Assembly (NCBI GenBank): GCA_964386865.1
Contig: CAYLUN010000011.1
Location: 12,058 to 76,057, forward strand
DNA: 64,000 nt
Source: an uncultured Lentisphaeraceae bacterium
GTDB taxonomy: Bacteria > Verrucomicrobiota > Kiritimatiellia > RFP12 > UBA1067
Direction of reading: 5' to 3'
Shown in pieces: positions 3,073 to 56,710 of the stretch (position 1 is its first letter; every line of letters starts with the position of its first letter). Position numbers and translations under genes: made by a program. The notes under the pieces are model-generated. The model was not told the origin of the DNA and did no database searches. It saw only the letters and a list, made by a program, of their open reading frames with translations.

Positions 3073-3204
3073 GGCGGGGCTGGGGCGCTGCGGCTTCGGC
3101 TCGCGCTGGAGGGCCCGCCTCCGTGCGGGCCGCGGACGCGTCAGGCCGCCGGTTCTTGGAGCCGAGAAGACTGTGTGTAACGAACAAACAAAGGAAGAAC
3201 AGAG

Positions 3205-13898: not shown

Positions 13899-14432
13899 AT
13901 GAAAAACCTGTTCTTCATAGCTGCCTGTATCGTCGGCGGTCTTCTGTCCGGCTGTGTGGTGTCCGATCCGTGGGCTCCGCAGTATACGAGTCCCGTTGTG
14001 GTGGATCCGACTCCGACTTATGTCACGCCGGCACCGCGCGCGCCGAAACCGATTGTGGTGGATCCGGTGCCGTTCATCGTTCCGCCGGTTGATCTCCGCC
14101 CGGGAAGGCCTGCCGATCCGATTCGTATTACGCCAAACCCGCACGGAACACCCCACTTTAACCCCGGCCGGGGCCAGCATGGGATTCCCCAGCATCAACC
14201 GTCGCCTCAGCTCCAGCATCAGCCCTCGCACCAGCCTGGGCATCAGCCCTCGCATCAGCCCTCGCATCAGCCTGGCCAGCAGCTCCAGAAGCAGCCTGGG
14301 CAGCAGATCCAGAAGCAGCCTGGGCAGCAGATCCAGAAGCAGCCTGGGCAGCAGCAACAGCAGCAGCAGCCTGGGCAGCAGCAAAAGCCTAAGCAGGAGC
14401 AGCAACTTCAGACGCAGCCGAAGCACCCCTGA
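13899..14432 (+). CDS. Pro/Gln-rich tandem-repeat lipoprotein, hypothetical
   Basis: RBS GGAAAGGA precedes the ATG. Lipobox LLSGC is present. The C-terminal half is made of HQPS/HQPG and QKQPGQQI peptide repeats, encoded by near-perfect nucleotide tandem repeats at about 14190-14400. Confidence 0.7.
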   Translation: MKNLFFIAACIVGGLLSGCVVSDPWAPQYTSPVVVDPTPTYVTPAPRAPKPIVVDPVPFIVPPVDLRPGRPADPIRITPNPHGTPHFNPGRGQHGIPQHQPSPQLQHQPSHQPGHQPSHQPSHQPGQQLQKQPGQQIQKQPGQQIQKQPGQQQQQQQPGQQQKPKQEQQLQTQPKHP

Positions 14433-19153: not shown

Positions 19154-19179
19154 TTTCTCACACCTCCGGAGGTGTGAGA
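19154..19179. promoter_or_regulatory. Perfect 26-bp palindrome TTCTCACACCTCCGGAGGTGTGAGAA (copy 1), about 143 bp upstream of the GRE start
   Basis: Exact palindrome read directly from the sequence. An identical copy lies at 24962-24987, upstream of the 25115 gene. Confidence 0.5.
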
Positions 19180-19321
19180 ATGGGATACATCACGTCATGT
19201 GCAGAGGGAGTGGGGGCAACGGCCCTCCTGGTGTATTTCTCTCTTTCCGGCTTCGGCCGGGCGTTTACAAGCGGCGGCGAAACGTGTACTCTAGTGCTCC
19301 AGTTCAGAAAGAAGGTGTGTG

Positions 19322-21700: not shown

Positions 21701-21866
21701 CGAACGCTGAACGGCAAAGTGAAGGCCAGGCTGGTCAGGCTCGCGCTGGGGGGCGAGGCTGCGCCGAGCCGCGGACCGAACGCTGAACGCCGAACGCCGA
21801 ACGGCGAAGTGATGTCCAGGCTGGTCAGGCTCGCGCTGGGGGGCGAGGCTGCGCCGAGCCGCGGAC
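21701..21866. repeat. Tandem duplication, about 90-bp unit x2, immediately downstream of the GRE stop
   Basis: Unit 21701-21776 and unit 21791-21866 share an identical 50-bp core CCAGGCTGGTCAGGCTCGCGCTGGGGGGCGAGGCTGCGCCGAGCCGCGGA. A partial third head copy GAACGCTGAACGC lies between them. Confidence 0.7.
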
Positions 21867-22432
21867 GGCGGAGACGCCGTCCATCTCCGCCTTTGCCTAA
21901 ATGGTGGCTGTCCATCAGCAGGCGGCCCGCACGGAGACGGGCCCTCCAACGCGAGAATAGCCGTTTCGAATCACCTCGCGCTGGAGGGACGACCTCCGTG
22001 ACGTCCTTGCGCTCCAGGCCAAATACATTTCGGCGGTGGTATGAGGGCGCACCGGCGTTCCGTTGTCCCGTCGCCAGATAACGTAAGGATAGCCGACCTG
22101 TAGCTCCGCCGCTTCTGTCGGCGGAGAGGAGGCGTGTTTCCGGCGACACCGGAACTACAGAGCCAGCGGCCCATGGTCTAAGGCTAGCGTAGCGAGGGTT
22201 CTCGCGCCATTTGATTCACAGACGCTTGATACATGAATAAGTGCGAGCACTTGGCGAATAGCGTGGGTGAAGTGCTGTGCTGACAAGAATTTAGACGCGT
22301 CGGCCCTGTAGCGAGGGCTTGACCCCGTACAGCTCCTCCGTGTACGCTTCTAAATATTGGTATCCTGCGCCAGTTCATCTGTCGGGCCGGTGGATTGCGT
22401 CTGGACGCCTATAGTCGTTGGCGGAAGAAGAA

Positions 22433-24961: not shown

Positions 24962-24987
24962 TTCTCACACCTCCGGAGGTGTGAGAA
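24962..24987. promoter_or_regulatory. Perfect 26-bp palindrome TTCTCACACCTCCGGAGGTGTGAGAA (copy 2), about 128 bp upstream of the 25115 start
   Basis: Identical to copy 1 at 19154-19179. It lies in the non-coding leader, which the track mis-annotates as an N-terminal extension of ORF 24938. Confidence 0.5.
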
Positions 24988-41865: not shown

Positions 41866-43902
41866 ATGATGCGTTTGTTTGCGTTTTCTCTAACGGTTGC
41901 GCTCGCAGGTGCTCTCCCGGCGGCGTCTCGGGAGCGTCTGTCATATGCGGACTTGGTCGGGCGCATGACCGACCTCGAGCATTTAGCCGTGCTTCCGGAG
42001 CCGGGCGAGCGCGCCGCGATGTGGTCCAGCTGGGACCGCAGGGCGCGCTACGACGAGCAGGCTGCCCAGTACGTCGACTGGTCTGCGAACGGCGACGGAG
42101 ACGGTAAGATCCGCATGGAGGGCGAAGCGCAGGTGCTCGCCGAGATGGACGGCCCCGGCGTCATTTGGCGCATCTGGTCGGCCAAGCCCGAGCAGGGGCA
42201 GCTCAAGGTCATTCTCGACGGACAGGTCGCAATCGATATGCCCTTCGCGCACTACTTCGACGCCCAGCACGCGCCGTTCCTCTACCCGGCGCTCGGGTAC
42301 GAGTCGGCCCGCGGCAAGAATCTGTACGTTCCCATTCCGTATCAGAAGTCCTGCAAGGTTCTCGCCGAGAAGGGCTGGGGCAAGTACTACCAGATCACCT
42401 ACACGACCTATCCCAAAGACGCCGCGCTGCCGACATTCAACGTCGCGCTGTCGGAGGAGTCCGCTGCGGCGCTGAAGCGCGCGAACGAGTTTTTCGGCGC
42501 GCGTCTCGGAAACGACCCCGCCGGCGCCCGGGACGGCGAGAAGACCCTGCGCGCGAGCGTGAAGGTTAAGCCCGGAGCGGCCGTGACGGTCCTTGAACTC
42601 GGCGGACCGCGCGCAGTCACGGCGCTTCGCGTGAAAGCGTCCTTCGCCGGCCGCGAGGACGAGATGGCGGCCCTCCGGCAGATGGTTCTGCGCATCACGT
42701 GGGACGGGGCGGACACGCCCGCAGTCTGGTGCCCGCTCGGCGACTTCTTCGGGTCGGCGCCGGGCGTCAACCCGTACCTGTCGCTTCCGGCGGGGATGAC
42801 GCCGACGGGCGGGTACGCGCTCTGGTACATGCCCTTCGCCAAGCAGGCGCGGATCGAGCTGCTCAACGAGGGTGACGCGGAGCGCGAGGTCAGCTTCGCC
42901 ATCACCCACGCGCCGCTGGCGCGCCCCGTCGAAACCTACGGCCGCTTCCACGCCAAGTGGCACCGCGACGTGATGCCCGTGGCCCCCGCGCGCTGGCCCG
43001 ATTGGACGGTCGTGAAGACCGAAGGCCGCGGGCGGTTCTGCGGCATGATGGTGCATGTCTGGAGCCCGCGCGGCGGACAGTGCGAGCGCGTGAAAGAGGC
43101 CCACGGGCACTACTGGTGGGGCGAGGGCGACGAGAAGTTCTTCGTCGACGGCGAGAAATATCCGTCCACCTTCGGCACGGGCACGGAGGACTACTTCGGG
43201 TACGCCTGGGGCAACGGCACGCTTTTCGCCAAGCCCTACCACAGCCAGACCGTGTGCGAGGGTAACGCCGGGCACATTTCGCTGAACCGCTGGCAGATCG
43301 CGGACCAGGTGCCGTTCCAGACGTCGTTCGAAGGGTGCTTGGAGAAGTACTGGCCGAACGACTGGCCGGCCCTCTACGCGGCCGTGGCGTACTGGTATCT
43401 GTCTGCGGACGGCGAGGATCCGCACGGCGCGACGCCGGCGGCAGACCGCCACGGCTACTACTACCGCCCGCCGCAGTCTGCGGCCGGCTTCACCGTGCTC
43501 AAGAAGACCAAGGGCAACGTTCAGGGACAGGGGATGGGGCAGTACGGCGCTTCCACGTGGTCCAACGACGACCAGCTCTGGTGGACCGGCGCGGCGCCGG
43601 GCGACAAGCTGGATCTGGCTGTGAAAGTCGAGAAGGCTGGGCGGTACGCCGTCGGCGTGAACCTGACCCGGGCCGCCGACTACGCCGTCGTGCAGTTCCA
43701 CGTGGACGGCAAGGCGCTGGGCGAGCGGGCCGACCTCTTCAACAACGGCGTGATCCGCACGCCGCTCCTGCCGCTCGGCACGCTGGACCTTGCCGCCGGC
43801 GACCACGTGCTGACGGTCGAGATCGTCGGCGCGAACGACCAAGCGAAGAAGGCCTACATGTTCGGGATCGACGAGCTGTCGCTGAAGCCGTCCGAGCAGT
43901 AG
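41866..43902 (+). CDS. DUF2961 / GH172-like secreted glycoside hydrolase
   Basis: RBS AGGAGGT precedes the ATG at 41866, followed by a signal peptide. The N-terminal region (WDRRARYDEQAAQYVDWSANGDGDGKIRMEGEAQVLAEMDGPGVIWRIWSA) matches the DUF2961 consensus. Confidence 0.65.
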   Translation: MMRLFAFSLTVALAGALPAASRERLSYADLVGRMTDLEHLAVLPEPGERAAMWSSWDRRARYDEQAAQYVDWSANGDGDGKIRMEGEAQVLAEMDGPGVIWRIWSAKPEQGQLKVILDGQVAIDMPFAHYFDAQHAPFLYPALGYESARGKNLYVPIPYQKSCKVLAEKGWGKYYQITYTTYPKDAALPTFNVALSEESAAALKRANEFFGARLGNDPAGARDGEKTLRASVKVKPGAAVTVLELGGPRAVTALRVKASFAGREDEMAALRQMVLRITWDGADTPAVWCPLGDFFGSAPGVNPYLSLPAGMTPTGGYALWYMPFAKQARIELLNEGDAEREVSFAITHAPLARPVETYGRFHAKWHRDVMPVAPARWPDWTVVKTEGRGRFCGMMVHVWSPRGGQCERVKEAHGHYWWGEGDEKFFVDGEKYPSTFGTGTEDYFGYAWGNGTLFAKPYHSQTVCEGNAGHISLNRWQIADQVPFQTSFEGCLEKYWPNDWPALYAAVAYWYLSADGEDPHGATPAADRHGYYYRPPQSAAGFTVLKKTKGNVQGQGMGQYGASTWSNDDQLWWTGAAPGDKLDLAVKVEKAGRYAVGVNLTRAADYAVVQFHVDGKALGERADLFNNGVIRTPLLPLGTLDLAAGDHVLTVEIVGANDQAKKAYMFGIDELSLKPSEQ

Positions 43903-43933
43903 CCCCTGATGGGCGTGCCTCGCTGAGCAGGCT

Positions 43934-44338
43934 CTAAGCCGCGAAGGCTTTCTTGATGCGTGCGACGAGCTGCCGGTTCGTCATCTTGTCCGCCGTCAGC
44001 ACGGCGAAGACCCGCTTGGCCAGATGCCGTTTCTCCAGGCGCTTCATCAGCTCCTTCTTGGCCTCTCCGGGGCCCAAGACCACGATCTCGTCGGCCTGGG
44101 CGAGGCCGGCGATAACCGCATCGTAGAACGCGTTCAGGTGATTCTGGAAGGCTCGCAGGCGAACGCCGTCGGCGGGCACTTGATAGTCGTCGAAGGCGCC
44201 TTTGCGGGGCGCAGCTCCTGAGCGGCTCGGGTGTCTTTCCGTGGCCGAGATCGTCAGGCGGGCGCCGACCTCGTGACCCGTGGCGGACACGATGAGCGCT
44301 TTGCGATGATCGATCCACAAACCGACTCGGTTGTTCAT
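43934..44338 (-). CDS. Host-attachment-protein-like (PF10116) hypothetical protein
   Basis: AGGAGG RBS precedes the ATG at 44338. 134 aa. The family assignment (PF10116) is tentative and rests on overall resemblance only. Confidence 0.5.
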   Translation of the reverse strand: MNNRVGLWIDHRKALIVSATGHEVGARLTISATERHPSRSGAAPRKGAFDDYQVPADGVRLRAFQNHLNAFYDAVIAGLAQADEIVVLGPGEAKKELMKRLEKRHLAKRVFAVLTADKMTNRQLVARIKKAFAA

Positions 44339-44460
44339 GGGCTCCTCCTTTCCGAAGGTCACCACAGCGGTGGCCCATGATTAACGACTCACTTGACAGA
44401 TGATAGTGTAGGGCGCGGCGCCGGTTTCGTCAAGGAAACACGGCCTGAATAGGGGCATTC

Positions 44461-44692
44461 GGGTGCGATTGCAAACTATTGCAATCGCACAGAATTCAGA
44501 AGCCAGAAGCCAGAATTCAGGAGTTGGATGCCAACGAGTTATGTCCGATTCGCGCGAGATTCTTCCTGTCTCCTCTTTGGGAGACACCTTTTTGGGCGGC
44601 GCTTTCGTATGTAAGTCGTTGCGAAGCAATTCTGAATTCTGACTCCTGAATTCTGACTTCTGGGTGCGATGCAACGAAGTAAAATCGCACCC
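44461..44692. mobile_element. MITE-like element copy A (232 bp) with 10-bp terminal inverted repeats GGGTGCGATT/AATCGCACCC and 9-bp target-site duplication GGGGCATTC
   Basis: Near-identical to 45667-45898. The flanking 9-mer GGGGCATTC appears at 44452-44460 and again at 44693-44701. Internal palindromes are GCGATTGCAAACTATTGCAATCGC and GTCTCCTCTTTGGGAGAC. Confidence 0.75.
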
Positions 44693-44767
44693 GGGGCATT
44701 CTTGGCGCGCGGCCGGTTTTCGGCAAAAGGCTGTTCGGCGCCCCGGCCGCCTTGCGCCCGCTCCGCT

Positions 44768-45604
44768 CTACTCTGAGCCTGAGAGGTAGAGGAGCAGGCT
44801 GGTGGCGTTGAAGAGGGCGTGCATGACGATCGGCGTGAGGAGGGAGCCGGTTGAGGCGTAGGCGGCGGAGAGGGCGGCGCTGAGCGCCAGCAGCGGCAGC
44901 AGCGAAATCGCGTGGAGGTGAACGAGGCCGAAGTAGAGGCCCGTCAGCAGGGCGGCAGAGGCGAAGGCGCGGCCTTTGAGCAGCGCCGGAAAGAGGATGC
45001 CGCGAAAGAGGGTCTCCTCCACCAGCGGCGCGACGACTATCGCCGTGGCCATCAGGAACAGCCGCGTGCCGTTCGACACGCCGCTGTCGCTGAGCCAGTC
45101 GAACACCTCCTGCATCTTGGGCGCGTAGCCCAGGCCGTCGGCGACCGCGGCCATCACATGCGAGAGCAGCATCACCGGCGGGATGACCGCCAGCCCGTAG
45201 AGGACGCCCTTGCCCACCGCCCGGCGCGCCGTGCACGCCGCCGAGCCGAAGGCCTCCCGGACGGTCGACCGCGCGAGGTAGAGGCAGAGCGAAGCGGTCA
45301 GCAGTCCGGCCAGCGCGTAGACCACCGGCCCGAGGACGAGGGCCGTCTCCGTGGGAGTCGGCGGGTTCGGCTTCTGGAACAGCGCGGGCAGCACGAAGAA
45401 CAGCGTCGTGAACAGCGTCAGCTGGACGTGCGGGGCGGCGAAGGGCCGGCGCTCCAGTTCGGCGCGGGCCGGCAGGCTGGGATTCGTCAGGCGGCGCTGG
45501 AACAGGAACGCGAGGTAGAGGTCGATGGTTGCGCCCGCGAGCAGGATGAGCCCGGCCGTGGCGAAGGCCAAGAGGCGCAGCAGGTCGTGAGCGGTGTCGG
45601 TCAT
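44768..45604 (-). CDS. CPBP-family intramembrane metalloprotease (CAAX protease/Abi, PF02517)
   Basis: Motifs EETLFRG, FGLVHL and MHALFN sit in TM helices. The start is at the internal Met 45604 (MTDTAHDLL...). The upstream part of track ORF 44768..45907 runs through the MITE and is non-coding. Confidence 0.8.
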   Translation of the reverse strand: MTDTAHDLLRLLAFATAGLILLAGATIDLYLAFLFQRRLTNPSLPARAELERRPFAAPHVQLTLFTTLFFVLPALFQKPNPPTPTETALVLGPVVYALAGLLTASLCLYLARSTVREAFGSAACTARRAVGKGVLYGLAVIPPVMLLSHVMAAVADGLGYAPKMQEVFDWLSDSGVSNGTRLFLMATAIVVAPLVEETLFRGILFPALLKGRAFASAALLTGLYFGLVHLHAISLLPLLALSAALSAAYASTGSLLTPIVMHALFNATSLLLYLSGSE

Positions 45605-45666
45605 GCGGGTATTGTGCCCGGAGCGGGCGCGCGGGGCAATCAAAAACCGCAGGGGCGCATTTGCAA

Positions 45667-45898
45667 GGGTGCGATTGCAAACTATTGCAATCGCACAGAA
45701 TTCAGAAGCCAGAAGCCAGAATTCAGGAGTTGGATGCCAACGAGTTATGTCCGATTCGCGCGAGATTCTTCCTGTCTCCTCTTTGGGAGACACCTTTTTG
45801 GGCGGCGCTTTCGTATGTAAGTCGTTGCGAAGCAATTCTGAATTCTGACTCCTGAATTCTGACTTCTGGGTGCGATGCAACGAAGTAAAATCGCACCC
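45667..45898. mobile_element. MITE-like element copy B (232 bp), same TIRs, different 9-bp TSD CATTTGCAA
   Basis: Essentially identical to copy A. The TSD appears at 45658-45666 and 45899-45907. It lies in the divergent promoter region between the CPBP gene and the phosphomannomutase gene. Confidence 0.75.
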
Positions 45899-45963
45899 CA
45901 TTTGCAAGAGCCTGCCGTTTAGGCTACAATTGAGCTTTCAACAGACAACAAAGGAGCTGACGC

Positions 45964-47289
45964 ATGGCCGGTATTTTTAAGGCATACGACATCCGGGGAA
46001 TTTACGGCAAGGACCTGACCGACGAGATCGCCTACAAGATCGGCCGGGCCTTCGCGACCTTCACGGGCTGCAAGAAGGTGGTCGTGGCCCGCGACATCCG
46101 CCCGCACTCGGAGCCGCTCTTCGCGGCGCTGGCCAAAGGGCTGGCCGAGCAGGGCGCGGACGTGATCGACATCGGCTACGGCTCGACGCCCATGTCGTAC
46201 TTCGCCAACGGCACGCTCGGCGCGGACGGGAGCGTGATGATCACCGCGTCGCACAATACGGCCGAGTGGAACGGCTTCAAGCTCTGCCGCGCGCAGGCCG
46301 TGCCCATCAGCGGCGCGACCGGCATCCTGGATATTGAGAAGATCGTGGCCGAGGGCAGCTTCGCGCCCGCGGCCGCGAAGCCGGGCACGGTCTCGAAGGT
46401 CGACGTTCTGGCGCAGTACGCGCAGCACGTGGCGACCTTCGCGCATCTGAAGCACCCCGTGCACGTGGCGATCGACTTCGCGAACGGCATGGGCATCTGG
46501 GAGGTCAAGGCGCTCAAGGGCCTCATCACGTGGGACGGGCTCTTCGAGGAGCCGGACGGACGCTTCCCGAACCACGAGGCGAACCCGCTGCACCACGCGA
46601 CGCTGAGGGATCTGCAGGAGAAGGTGCGGGCGGGCACGTACGCGTTCGGCGTGGCGTACGACGGCGACGCGGACCGCGCGGGGTTCATCGACGAGAGGGG
46701 CGAGATCATTCCCATGGACCTGATCACGGCGCTGATCGCTCAGGACGTGCTGGCCACGCGCAAGGGCGCGATCTTCTACGACCTGCGCAGCAGCTGGGTG
46801 GTGAAGGAGGTCATCGAGGCCGCCGGCGGCACGCCGCTGATGAGCCGCGTGGGCCACGCCTTCATCAAGCAGCAGATGCGCGCGCACGACGCGCTCTTCG
46901 CGGGCGAGCTGAGCGGCCACTACTACTTCAAGGACAACTTCACGGCCGAGAGCTCCGCCCTGGCGATCCTCTCGCTGGCGAACATCGTCAGCAAGTCCGA
47001 CAAGCCCCTCTCGGCGCTGATCGCCCCGCTGCGCAAGTACTTCGCAAGCGGCGAGATCAACACGCACGTGCGCCGCGACCCCCAGACGATCCTGGACGAG
47101 ATCCGGGCGAAGTACACGGACGGCCGGATGTTCGAGCTGGACGGCGTGAGCGTCGAGTACGCGGACTGGTGGTTTAACGTGCGCTGCTCCAACACGGAGC
47201 CGCTGGTGCGCCTGAACCTAGAGGCGAAGACGAAGGCGACGATGGAAGCCAAGCGCGACGAACTGCTCGCGATCATCCGGAGGGGATAG
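45964..47289 (+). CDS. Phosphomannomutase/phosphoglucomutase (alpha-D-phosphohexomutase)
   Basis: N-terminal FKAYDIRG. Active-site loop TASHNTAEWNGFK. RBS AAGGAG. Confidence 0.85.
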   Translation: MAGIFKAYDIRGIYGKDLTDEIAYKIGRAFATFTGCKKVVVARDIRPHSEPLFAALAKGLAEQGADVIDIGYGSTPMSYFANGTLGADGSVMITASHNTAEWNGFKLCRAQAVPISGATGILDIEKIVAEGSFAPAAAKPGTVSKVDVLAQYAQHVATFAHLKHPVHVAIDFANGMGIWEVKALKGLITWDGLFEEPDGRFPNHEANPLHHATLRDLQEKVRAGTYAFGVAYDGDADRAGFIDERGEIIPMDLITALIAQDVLATRKGAIFYDLRSSWVVKEVIEAAGGTPLMSRVGHAFIKQQMRAHDALFAGELSGHYYFKDNFTAESSALAILSLANIVSKSDKPLSALIAPLRKYFASGEINTHVRRDPQTILDEIRAKYTDGRMFELDGVSVEYADWWFNVRCSNTEPLVRLNLEAKTKATMEAKRDELLAIIRRG

Positions 47290-54509: not shown

Positions 54510-55577
54510 GTGCCAATCTACCAGACCGCCTCGTTCGGCCATCCGGCGCTGGGGCAGAGCACCGGGTTCGACTACTCGCGCTCCTCCAACCCGACGCGCC
54601 TCGCCCTGGAGCAGACCCTGGCGGCGGCCGACGGCGGCCACCGGGGCTTCGCCTTCGCCTCCGGCATGGCGGCCATCGACTGCGCGCTGCGGCTTTTCGC
54701 GCCCGGCGAGCGCATGGCGGTGACCGAAGACCTCTACGGCGGCACGTTCCGGCTCTTTGACAAGGTGTTCCGGCCGCTCGGAATCGAGGCGGTCTATGTG
54801 GACACGTCGGACGCAGAGGAGGTGCGCCGCGCCCTGGCAGACCCGCGCGTGAAAGGGCTCTTCGTCGAGTCGCCCACGAACCCGCTGCTCAAGGTCGCCG
54901 ACCTGCGCGCCCTGTCGGAGCGGGCGCGCGCGGCGGGCGCGCTGCTGATCGTGGACAACACCTTCCTGACGCCCGTCCTGCAGCGGCCTTTGGAGCAGGG
55001 GGCCGACCTCGTGGTCTACAGCGCCACCAAGTACCTCGCGGGCCACAACGACGTGGTTGCGGGCGCGGTGGTCACCCGCACCCCGGAGCTGTCGGAGCGG
55101 GTCGGTTTTCTCCAGAACGCGGTCGGCGGCATCCTCGGCCCGCAGGACGCCTGGCTCACCTTGCGCGGCCTCAAGACGCTGGCCTTGCGCGTCGAGCGGC
55201 AGCAGGCGAACGCGCAGGTCATCGCGGAGTGGCTGTGTCGCCACCCGCACGTGCGCCGCGTCTTCTACCCCGGTCTGCCCGGCCACGCGGGCCGCGACAT
55301 TCTCTTGCGCGAAAAGAGCGGCTTCGGCGGCATGATCGCGTTCGAGGTCGACGAGCCGGGACGCATTCCCGGCATCCTTTCGGGCGTGCGCGTCTTCCTG
55401 TTCGCCGAGAGCCTCGGCGGCGTGGAGTCGCTCATCACCTATCCCGCGGTGCAGACCCACGCGGACCTCGACGCGGCGACGCGCGAGCGCCTCGGCATCA
55501 ACGGACGCCTGCTGCGCCTCTCGGTCGGCATCGAGGACGTGCGGGATCTGATCGGCGATTTGGAGGGCGTGCTGTGA
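54510..55577 (+). CDS. PLP-dependent Cys/Met-metabolism enzyme (O-acetylhomoserine sulfhydrylase / cystathionine gamma-synthase family, PF01053); true start probably upstream at a non-canonical codon near 54429
   Basis: The conserved N-terminal motif (T..LLAQAGN..DPATGAISVPIYQTASF) is encoded in-frame upstream of the first canonical start (GTG 54510), back to the stop at 54408. A strong RBS AAGGAGGG lies 7 nt before ATC 54429. Downstream PLP-enzyme motifs are present (SATKYLAGHND). Confidence 0.8.
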   Translation: MPIYQTASFGHPALGQSTGFDYSRSSNPTRLALEQTLAAADGGHRGFAFASGMAAIDCALRLFAPGERMAVTEDLYGGTFRLFDKVFRPLGIEAVYVDTSDAEEVRRALADPRVKGLFVESPTNPLLKVADLRALSERARAAGALLIVDNTFLTPVLQRPLEQGADLVVYSATKYLAGHNDVVAGAVVTRTPELSERVGFLQNAVGGILGPQDAWLTLRGLKTLALRVERQQANAQVIAEWLCRHPHVRRVFYPGLPGHAGRDILLREKSGFGGMIAFEVDEPGRIPGILSGVRVFLFAESLGGVESLITYPAVQTHADLDAATRERLGINGRLLRLSVGIEDVRDLIGDLEGVL

Positions 55578-56710
55578 ACGACTGGACACGCGTGATACAC
55601 AGCGGGCGCGACCGCGACCCGCACACGGGCGCGTCGAGCGTCCCGATCTACCAGGTCTCGACCTTCGACCAGCCCGACCCCGAGCACCTCGGCGCGTACG
55701 ACTACGCCCGCAGCGACAACCCGACGCGCGAGGCGCTGGAGCACACCGTTGCGCAGCTCGAGGGCGGCGCGCGCGGGCTGGCCTTCGCCTCGGGCATGGC
55801 GGCCACCTCGTCGGCGCTGCTGCTCTTTCAGGCGGGCGACCACCTCGTCGTCGGCCGCGACATCTACGGCGGCACCTACCGCGTGCTGACCACGATCTTC
55901 AAGCGCTGGGGGCTCGACGTGACCTTCGCCGACAGCGCCGACCCCGAGGCGGTTCGCCGCGCGATCAAGCCGTCGACGCGCGGGCTCTTCGTGGAGAGCC
56001 CGGCCAACCCGCTGCTGCAGGTCACCGACCTGCGCACCATGGCCGAGATCGCCCGCGCGCACGGGCTGCTGGCCGTCACGGACAACACCTTCATGACGCC
56101 GCACCTGCAGCGTCCGCTCGACCTTGGCTTCGACCTCGTGGTTCACAGCGCCACCAAGTTCCTGGGCGGCCACAGCGACCTGATCGCCGGCGTGGCGGTG
56201 GCGCGCGACGCCGAGCTGGGCAAGCGGCTCAAGGCGATCCAGAACAGCTTCGGCGCGATCCTCGGGCCGCAGGACGCGTGGCTCGTGCTGCGCGGCATCA
56301 AGACCCTCGCCGTGCGGCTGGAGGCTCAGCAGCTGACGGCGGGCGTGCTTGCCCGCTGGCTGCACGCGCGCCCGGAGGTCCGGCGCGTGTTCTATCCCGG
56401 ACTCGACTCGCATCCCGGCCACGCCGTGCACGCGCGGCAGGCGCGCGGGGCGGGAGCCGTGCTATCGTTCGAGTTGGCGGACGGCCCGACAGCCGTGGCG
56501 TTCATGAAGCGCGTCAAGCTCCCGCTCGTGGCGGTGAGTCTCGGCGGCGTGGAGAGCATCCTCTCCTACCCCGTGACGATGTCTCACGCGGCCATGCCGC
56601 GCGAGGAGCGCTTGGCGCGCGGCATCACGGACGGGCTGGTGCGGCTCTCCGTCGGGCTCGAGAGCGCCGACGACCTGATGGCGGATTTGAAGCAGGCGCT
56701 GGAGGAGTGA
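55574..56710 (+). CDS. Second PLP-dependent Cys/Met-metabolism enzyme (MetB/MetC/MetY family paralogue)
   Basis: GTG start overlaps the upstream stop (GTGA) and is preceded by GGAGGG. Motifs DPHTGASSVPIYQVSTF and SATKFLGGHSD are present. Confidence 0.8.
   Translation: MNDWTRVIHSGRDRDPHTGASSVPIYQVSTFDQPDPEHLGAYDYARSDNPTREALEHTVAQLEGGARGLAFASGMAATSSALLLFQAGDHLVVGRDIYGGTYRVLTTIFKRWGLDVTFADSADPEAVRRAIKPSTRGLFVESPANPLLQVTDLRTMAEIARAHGLLAVTDNTFMTPHLQRPLDLGFDLVVHSATKFLGGHSDLIAGVAVARDAELGKRLKAIQNSFGAILGPQDAWLVLRGIKTLAVRLEAQQLTAGVLARWLHARPEVRRVFYPGLDSHPGHAVHARQARGAGAVLSFELADGPTAVAFMKRVKLPLVAVSLGGVESILSYPVTMSHAAMPREERLARGITDGLVRLSVGLESADDLMADLKQALEE

Follow-up and report, generated by a model that had tools for sequence, protein, structure and literature searches.

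A 64,000-nt stretch of contig CAYLUN010000011.1 (assembly GCA_964386865.1, positions 12,058 to 76,057 of the forward strand), from an uncultured Lentisphaeraceae bacterium, carries two copies of a 232-bp sequence on either side of a gene encoding a CPBP intramembrane protease. We refer to this whole stretch of DNA as the window. Our analysis indicates that the 232-bp sequence is a MITE (miniature inverted-repeat transposable element), that is, a non-autonomous and non-coding element which is bounded by terminal inverted repeats (TIRs), generates 9-bp target-site duplications and would be moved by a transposase acting in trans. We assign this reading a probability of about 0.85. The evidence supports an uncatalogued MITE family distributed across Kiritimatiellia, Lentisphaerae and Verrucomicrobia, which represents an ordinary kind of element and is structurally well characterised.

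Two separate insertions in the window

The two copies, hereafter A (44461-44692) and B (45667-45898), are identical at 232 of 232 positions and lie in the same orientation, 1206 bp apart. Both start with GGGTGCGATT and end with AATCGCACCC, a terminal motif for which the expected number of chance matches in the window is zero. Each copy is bracketed by a perfect 9-bp direct repeat, and this repeat differs between copy A (GGGGCATTC) and copy B (CATTTGCAA). The similarity does not reach past the element ends: the repeat family comprises exactly 232 nt, the sequence beyond the duplications is unmatched and 0 of 9 positions agree between the outer flanks of the pair. The composition of the element is foreign relative to these flanks (GC content of ~0.49-0.53 in the element, 0.65-0.74 in the flanks). 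As identical copies are associated with different duplications and different flanking sequences, they represent two separate and recent insertions. Moreover, the copies are 100% identical within the window, while identity across genomes is 68-81% (see below), suggesting that the transposase has been active recently in this lineage. The predicted empty-site sequences are CCTGAATAGGGGCATTCTTGGCGCG for copy A and CAGGGGCGCATTTGCAAGAGCCTGC for copy B.

The first-pass annotation of this DNA, made by a model from the sequence alone, had described two near-identical 232-bp sequences, each with its own 9-bp duplication, and had proposed two independent transposition events. Identity turned out to be complete, both duplications are perfect and different from each other, and independent transposition is supported by these separate duplications, by the unmatched flanks and by the existence of a wide family whose members have duplications of their own. 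A larger segmental duplication with matching flanks, which the same annotation had named as an observation that would speak against transposition, was looked for, and the flanks do not match. The lack of shared positions in the outer flanks argues at the same time against a composite transposon carrying the enclosed gene. Such a transposon (copy A, the CPBP gene and copy B) was considered and rejected on this ground, and also on the ground that the CPBP gene adjoins the phosphomannomutase (PMM) gene in a relative (L122) in which no element is present at the site homologous to the copy B insertion.

Structure and conservation of the element

The TIR had been annotated as a perfect 10-bp repeat. 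A perfect 10-bp core is indeed present, but the full TIR is longer (~30 bp) and imperfect, and each end is in itself a hairpin. The left end (GGGTGCGATTGCAAACTA-TTGCAATCGCAC) and the reverse complement of the right end (GGGTGCGATTTTACTTCGTTGCA-TCGCAC) can be aligned over ~30 bp. The left hairpin has a 12+4+12 organisation, with a stem of 12 bp, and the right hairpin has a 9-bp stem and a 13-nt loop; counting its complement as well, the 9-mer GGGTGCGAT is present four times in each element. Inward from the ends are found, in this order, inverted heptamer arms of 31 nt composed of tandem units of the CAGNANN type, a further imperfect stem and a small central hairpin, the whole forming a foldback (Table 1). 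Folding of both strands is far more stable than that of shuffled sequence (z = -8.6 and -9.0), and the central hairpin with its T-run scores as terminator-like on the + strand in the window copies. Open reading frames (ORFs) in the element are short, and 7-bp indels among copies disrupt any reading frame. A conserved interior ATG and a conserved interior TAA were examined as possible relics of a transposase ORF and rejected, as translations from the ATG differ among copies. Other structural claims made at first sight have thus held: the left-end hairpin, the inverted heptamer arms and the central hairpin that make up the structured interior are all present, coding capacity is lacking, and the recommended folding check gave far more stable structures for both strands than for shuffled sequence.

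Conservation was read from 14-15 distinct full-length copies, which were aligned with one another. Within the family, conservation peaks at the right end, where the block GGTGCGATGCAACGAAGTRAAATCGCACCC hardly varies; at the left end, the first 10 bases are conserved as well. The left hairpin persists in 16 sequence variants (with inner stems GCAA/TTGC, CAAC/GTTG and TTAC/GTAA) and, judging from these variants, is maintained through compensatory changes. The heptamer arms are conserved in type and variable in unit number, with 7-bp indels even between orthologous copies. The centre of the element is variable apart from the small hairpin GTCYYC-N6-GRGGAC, for which some changes affect both sides of the stem. 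When the three local hairpins are taken together, 85% of alignment cells are paired and four pairs change on both sides; covariation is modest.

A family widespread in the PVC group

A pattern covering both end types was searched in one genome per species of bacteria and archaea. This identified 60 loci in 21 species-representative assemblies, and the same pattern matched 54 metagenome contigs; as it requires 21 exact bases, the numbers of loci are lower bounds. All taxon-labelled carriers belong to the PVC (Planctomycetes, Verrucomicrobia, Chlamydiae) group, under the labels Kiritimatiellia, Lentisphaeraceae, Victivallales, Verrucomicrobiota and 'PVC group bacterium'. Viral contigs scanned with the end pattern yielded no match, and no match to the TIR was detected when the element was compared by BLAST with 72,556 plasmids. 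Several hosts are multicopy, with at least 11 loci in the metagenome-assembled genome (MAG) ELA067 (JBAWXQ01), at least 8 in JBIJDW01 and at least 7 each in CAYRKB01 and JAQWAM01. According to BLAST comparisons with the loci found by the pattern, full-length relatives are 68-81% identical to the window element. Many other copies are cut by contig ends, as expected for repeats. The first-pass annotation had recommended counting copies in related genomes, and had regarded confinement to the two loci of the window as an argument against a mobile element; the 60 loci in 21 species and the 54 metagenome contigs show that the family extends well beyond the window.

In one of the loci (L083), two left element halves (359-438 and 1191-1264) in direct orientation flank ~750 bp, which by eye may encode two small reverse-strand ORFs. 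This layout suggests a rearrangement at element copies.

Target-site duplications were sought in all loci and in the window, as pairs of GGGTGCGAT...ATCGCACCC flanked by 9-mers that have at least 8 of 9 positions in common; the chance of such an agreement is ~1e-4 for one pair. This threshold is reached by the 9-bp duplications of 27 elements in the 114 loci and the window, 20 of these duplications being perfect. The duplicated 9-mers are all distinct except at orthologous sites, and no target consensus emerged among them. A 9-bp duplication of host DNA brackets each of the well-preserved copies. In addition, in fragmented MAGs, the 9-mer found beside a left end at one contig edge recurs beside a right end at the edge of another contig (L009/L036, L018/L035, L029/L055 and L025/L019). 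Most elements measure 209-237 bp; one is 152 bp long, a few reach 324-386 bp owing to extra internal sequence, and a separate class comprises only 31-32 bp. One insertion is orthologous in four loci (L014, L062, L087 and L101), with the duplication GCGCCGGTC/GTGCCGGTC, and the element is 231 bp long in two of these genomes and 224 bp long in the two others. Thus, heptamer arrays gain or lose whole units in place.

Proposed transposition mechanism and search for a transposase

A DDE-type transposase making cuts staggered by 9 bp is the enzyme suggested by the TIRs, the 9-bp length of the duplication and the lack of target specificity. Such an enzyme, supplied in trans, would bind the terminal repeats and join the element ends to a target cut with a 9-bp stagger, and gap repair would then produce the 9-bp duplication. 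Its gene would lie elsewhere in the genome, either in an unassembled part or between ends too divergent to be detected. The interior of the element (the heptamer foldback and the small hairpin) would be a passenger structure, through which the element may fold into a long hairpin when its DNA is single-stranded or when read-through transcribes it. As for copy B, it would have landed on a TTGCAA hexamer between divergent genes, leaving one hexamer on each side, so that the predicted -35 box of the PMM gene would have been retained.

Several points weigh against this reading. A transposase gene associated with the same TIR, for which a search had been advised, was found neither in or beside any of the 114 loci nor in the window. 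As a result, the 9-bp duplication and the TIRs are the basis from which a trans-acting enzyme, its membership of the DDE type and its family are all deduced. The number of copies in the source genome is two as counted within the 64-kb window. No exact pair of filled and empty sites was obtained from near-identical strains, the closest available genomes showing ~91% identity in PMM. Finally, the orthologue comparisons revealed no locus at which one genome carries the full element and another a solo hairpin (see below).

The search for the enzyme was conducted in several ways. No pair of ends located 0.4-8 kb apart shows a convincing duplication. All-against-all clustering of the ORFs near element ends recovered host families only (ABC and OEP), plus one artefact resulting from a translated element. 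Pfam scans of 30 ORFs adjoining orphan or solo ends identified ordinary host genes and no transposase; these neighbours include ZnuA, NAD synthase, glycosidases, ABC ATPases, an SNF2 helicase, an aminotransferase and TPR proteins. The window itself contains no further end-like sequence in inverted pairs and no autonomous insertion sequence (IS) with matching ends.

Solo hairpins and alternative explanations

About one quarter of the loci hold just a hairpin of 31-32 bp. Seven of these solo hairpins lie between 9-bp duplications whose two copies agree at 8 or 9 positions, such as CGGGCCGCA (L033), AATACCGCA (L032) and CTATCGAAC (L060); L051 also belongs to this class. Solo sequences correspond either to the right hairpin or to the left hairpin plus CC, and the 31-bp solos are nearly identical to the right terminal repeat. 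The full element contains internal direct repeats, namely GGGTGCGAT at positions 1-9 and 202-210, and ATCGCAC at positions 24-30 and 224-230. As the solo sequences match exactly the products expected from deletion between these repeats, they would most simply be remnants left by such events. It is established that long palindromes promote deletion of this kind, which is the basis of the 'nearly precise excision' of Tn10. In that case, a deletion inside the inverted ends leaves a small palindrome within the 9-bp duplication, and solo hairpins have the same anatomy.

Solo hairpins may also be viewed the other way round, the true mobile unit being the 31-32-bp hairpin (GGGTGCGAT-N13/14-ATCGCACCC) and the 232-bp element a composite of two such hairpins, with a captured heptamer foldback, moved by its outer ends. 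This would account for the seven solos with duplications of their own, for the occurrence of identical solos at different sites in one MAG (L030, L032 and L033), for the presence of both terminal motifs in each hairpin, and for heptamer foldbacks without terminal hairpins in PVC loci (L048 4200-4311; L104) and in Nostocales plasmids. However, a conventional transposase would have to pair two ends within a duplex of 31 bp, which is too short and stiff for this, and both solo types are exactly what internal direct-repeat deletion, favoured by long palindromes, would yield. Moreover, conservation of the full-length architecture in 21 species speaks against its having been assembled independently many times, and we consider the composite origin unlikely. 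We are slightly more sceptical of a more far-reaching scenario, in which the 31-32-bp palindrome itself would be transposed, with 9-bp duplication, by an undescribed PVC transposase reading hairpin ends, and the heptamer foldback would be a separate module shared with Nostocales and exchanged between phyla. If this were true, a palindrome of 31-32 bp would be about the smallest duplication-forming mobile DNA known.

Other explanations give mobility a lesser or a different role. The element could mainly act as a structured RNA or as a regulatory cassette, for instance a terminator, an insulator or an mRNA stabiliser, and be kept by selection, with mobility being secondary, an explanation we regard as improbable. 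The very stable folding (z ~-9), the conserved central hairpin with some two-sided changes and the terminator-like hairpin and T-run of the window copies are in its favour, as are the mismatches in the long stem on the + strand, where G-T (87) exceeds A-C (44). This 2:1 excess suggests a hint of selection on one strand, although the counts derive from related, non-independent copies. On the other hand, the element region has no Rfam match (with E up to 10, only chance-level matches with E above 3 were obtained), the covariation term of RNAalifold is unfavourable and ~28% of long-stem positions are mismatched, many by transversions. The T-run after the central hairpin is peculiar to the window copies and not conserved elsewhere in the family, and foldback MITEs generally fold stably anyway. 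We give very little credit to a palindrome akin to repetitive extragenic palindromes (REPs) or REP doublets (REPINs), moved in single-stranded form by an HUH transposase (a REP-associated tyrosine transposase, RAYT, or an enzyme of the IS200/IS605 type) reading the terminal hairpins. It is true that both ends are hairpins, the left one being kept by compensatory substitutions, and that solo palindromes of ~31 bp are dispersed in intergenic DNA. But REPINs and IS200/IS605 elements insert without target duplication and beside a specific short motif, whereas a 9-bp duplication is the rule here and no target consensus exists. REP superfamilies are characterised by a GTAG or CGTC tetranucleotide at one palindrome end (PMC3733652); the GTAG/CGTC head is absent from our elements, whose ends read GGGTGCGAT and ATCGCACCC. 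In addition, the Pfam-scanned neighbours of the copies, which do not amount to whole genomes, include no Y1 (RAYT) transposase gene. Lastly, the window copies are identical, have the same direct orientation and are separated by just 1.2 kb, so that one might think of a segmental duplication of local origin, or of repeats that already existed and recombined with each other. This is scarcely credible, as the two sequences cease to match at the element boundaries, the copies have separate 9-bp duplications and the same element is found with other duplications in unrelated loci of 21 species.

Relationship to known elements

The element combines the properties by which MITEs are recognised: it is small, has no transposase ORF, possesses TIRs in all copies, is flanked by 9-bp duplications specific to each site and is present in multiple copies per genome. 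An autonomous IS with matching ends was not found, either in the 114 loci or in the window. MITE families often lack one, and the label does not depend on it. The element resembles prokaryotic MITEs such as QMITE2 of Coxiella burnetii in its size class, lack of ORF, ~30-bp TIRs, ~9-bp duplication, multicopy status, stable hairpin and intergenic location, the direct repeats of QMITE2 being 7-9 bp, its TIRs 23-29 bp and its core 113-145 bp (PMC10969869). It differs from QMITE2 and known MITEs by the lack of sequence similarity, its PVC hosts, the hairpin formed by each TIR, its tandem-heptamer arms and the lack of a known parent IS.

IS families with 8-9-bp duplications in ISfinder include IS1, IS4 (IS10, IS50), IS5/IS903, IS256, ISKra4 and ISLre2. 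The 9-bp duplication and the TIRs starting with GG/GGG fit several of these families. With REP/REPIN-RAYT systems and IS200/IS605-derived palindromes, the present family shares short dispersed extragenic hairpins and inverted hairpin doublets; unlike them, it has a 9-bp duplication and true TIRs. Besides REP/REPIN-RAYT elements, two other classes were rejected. An IS200/IS605-derived palindrome would have subterminal hairpins, no TIR, no duplication and a fixed target, whereas TIRs and a duplication are present here and no target consensus was found. Tn3-derived inverted-repeat miniature elements (TIMEs) have a 5-bp duplication and a ~38-bp TIR with GGGG, and the duplication is 9 bp here, not 5.

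A literature search with the terminal and arm sequence strings retrieved no relevant paper, 10-mers matching unrelated papers only. Similarly, a full-text search combining MITEs and PVC taxa surfaced no paper on the subject, and a 2024 review on MITEs makes no mention of Verrucomicrobia, Planctomycetes or Lentisphaerae (PMC10969869).

Table 1. Positions of the candidate MITE copies, their components, neighbouring host genes and related plasmid elements. Positions are those of the window, except for the last row.
Feature	Position	Strand	Description
MITE copy A	44461..44692	+	232 bp; 100% identical to copy B (repeat-family comparison in the window)
MITE copy B	45667..45898	+	232 bp; in divergent CPBP-PMM intergenic region
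Left target-site duplication, copy A	44452..44460	.	GGGGCATTC; same as 44693-44701
Right target-site duplication, copy A	44693..44701	.	GGGGCATTC
Left target-site duplication, copy B	45658..45666	.	CATTTGCAA
Right target-site duplication, copy B	45899..45907	.	CATTTGCAA; includes TTGCAA, -35 of promoter-like PMM site
Left terminal repeat and left hairpin	44461..44490 (copy B 45667-45696)	+	GTGCGATTGCAA-ACTA-TTGCAATCGCAC
Left heptamer arm	44490..44524 (copy B 45696-45730)	+	CAGAATT CAGAAGC CAGAAGC CAGAATT CAGGAGT; inverted repeats
Central hairpin	44567..44586 (copy B 45773-45792)	+	TGTCTCC-TCTTTG-GGAGACA, then T-run CCTTTTTGGG
Right heptamer arm	44628..44663 (copy B 45834-45869)	+	AATTCTG AATTCTG ACTCCTG AATTCTG ACTTCTG; complements left arm
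Right terminal repeat and right hairpin	44662..44692 (copy B 45868-45898)	+	GGGTGCGAT-GCAACGAAGTAAA-ATCGCACCC
CPBP / Rce1-like intramembrane protease gene	44768..45604	-	PF02517, E = 4.5e-19; host gene, outside element
Phosphomannomutase (PMM) gene	45964-47289	+	Followed by galactokinase
Nostocales plasmid elements	L123 1500-1682, L124 1500-1672, L125-L128		~170 bp; Nostoc, Tolypothrix, Microchaete, Calothrix

Neighbouring genes and possible consequences of insertion

The first-pass annotation had placed the element copies around a CPBP protease gene, with copy B in the region between this gene and a divergent phosphomannomutase gene, and both gene identities were confirmed. Copy A follows the CPBP stop codon at a distance of 76 bp. 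Copy B is upstream of both divergent ATG start codons, at 62 bp from that of CPBP and 65 bp from that of PMM. A promoter-like site is predicted for the PMM gene at 45902-45930 (TTGCAA-17-TACAAT). The copy B target (CATTTGCAA) holds the palindromic hexamer TTGCAA, and target duplication puts one hexamer beside each gene.

The closest relatives of the window PMM show ~91% amino-acid identity, and identity is 86% to a protein named as Kiritimatiellia; the organism from which the window derives is Kiritimatiellia-like. In the relatives at ~91% PMM identity (L122 and L115), there is no element upstream of the PMM gene, where a single TTTGCA(A) motif and a -10-like hexamer are found; the intergenic DNA is barely alignable. 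As the right-hand TTGCAA has been kept and a single motif is present in these element-free relatives, the copy B insertion probably left the predicted PMM promoter intact. The element may influence CPBP or PMM expression. Being enclosed by identical direct repeats (copies A and B), the CPBP gene would be prone to loss by homologous recombination between them. The orthologue comparisons of L033 with L042, and of L010 with L056, L077 and L099, revealed no common intergenic context.

On the other side of copy A, a 174-aa ORF (43854-44378, - strand) without any Pfam match is located between a DUF2961 gene and the element, and overlaps the terminal part of the DUF2961 ORF. This 174-aa frame may be spurious; should it be a genuine gene, copy A would sit just upstream of its promoter-like site (44433-44405).

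Heptamer arms in Nostocales and in other PVC loci

When the element was compared with plasmids by BLAST, matches were confined to Nostocales cyanobacteria (56 records, 223 places). They correspond to the two heptamer arms, located ~170 bp apart and 82-95% identical across the listed matches. Like the PVC element, the Nostocales elements use the heptamers CAGAATT, CAGGAGT and CAGAAGC as inverted arms; unlike it, they enclose another core and carry no GGGTGCGAT hairpins at their ends. This core is structured, with compensatory changes between copies (CCACTAAATCGGAGATTTAGTGG, CCACCAAATCGTAGATTTGGTGG and CCACAAAATTGAAAATTTTGTGG), and a comparison of the Nostocales elements with Rfam gave no match. 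Heptamer-repeat elements and very small dispersed repeats of Nostocales are known from the literature on short tandemly repeated repetitive (STRR) sequences and small dispersed repeats (SDR).

Heptamer foldbacks without GGGTGCGAT hairpins are also present in the PVC group, in L048 (1987-2180 and 4200-4311), in L104 (3585-3680) and in L002 (downstream of 783-811). The likeness between Nostocales and PVC heptamers may reflect either a shared mobile module or the convergence of slippage-prone repeats. Separately, one inverted pair of these foldback modules in L048 flanks a 714-aa ORF, and another PVC variant is built of CAGGGTT units.

Other repeats in the window

The window contains further repeats. 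A perfect 26-bp palindrome (TTCTCACACCTCCGGAGGTGTGAGAA) occurs at 19155-19180 and 24962-24987, 5.8 kb apart and in unrelated flanks; it looks like an operator for a dimeric regulator. A 76-nt tandem duplication (21701-21776 and 21791-21866, 95% identical) is followed by a GC-rich hairpin, and a 34-nt stretch at 3100-3133 is 94% complementary to 21922-21955, 18.8 kb away. A run of 12/24-nt tandem repeats of the CAGCAGATCCAGAAGCAGCCTGGG type extends over 14193-14419 and, if genic, would encode a low-complexity segment rich in Gln, Pro and Ala. Lastly, 54855-55103 and 55404-55464 are ~72% identical to 55982-56230 and 56531-56591, respectively, at a constant offset of 1127 bp, which is consistent with a tandem pair of paralogous genes.

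Implications

The family described here adds a MITE with clear ends, a 9-bp duplication and a wide host range to a superphylum for which we found none described. It explains many contig breaks in PVC MAGs. It would matter more if its partner enzyme were new, or if the 31-bp hairpins were independently mobile. It is also a marker of recent transposase activity, as illustrated by the identical window copies, and of insertions beside promoters.

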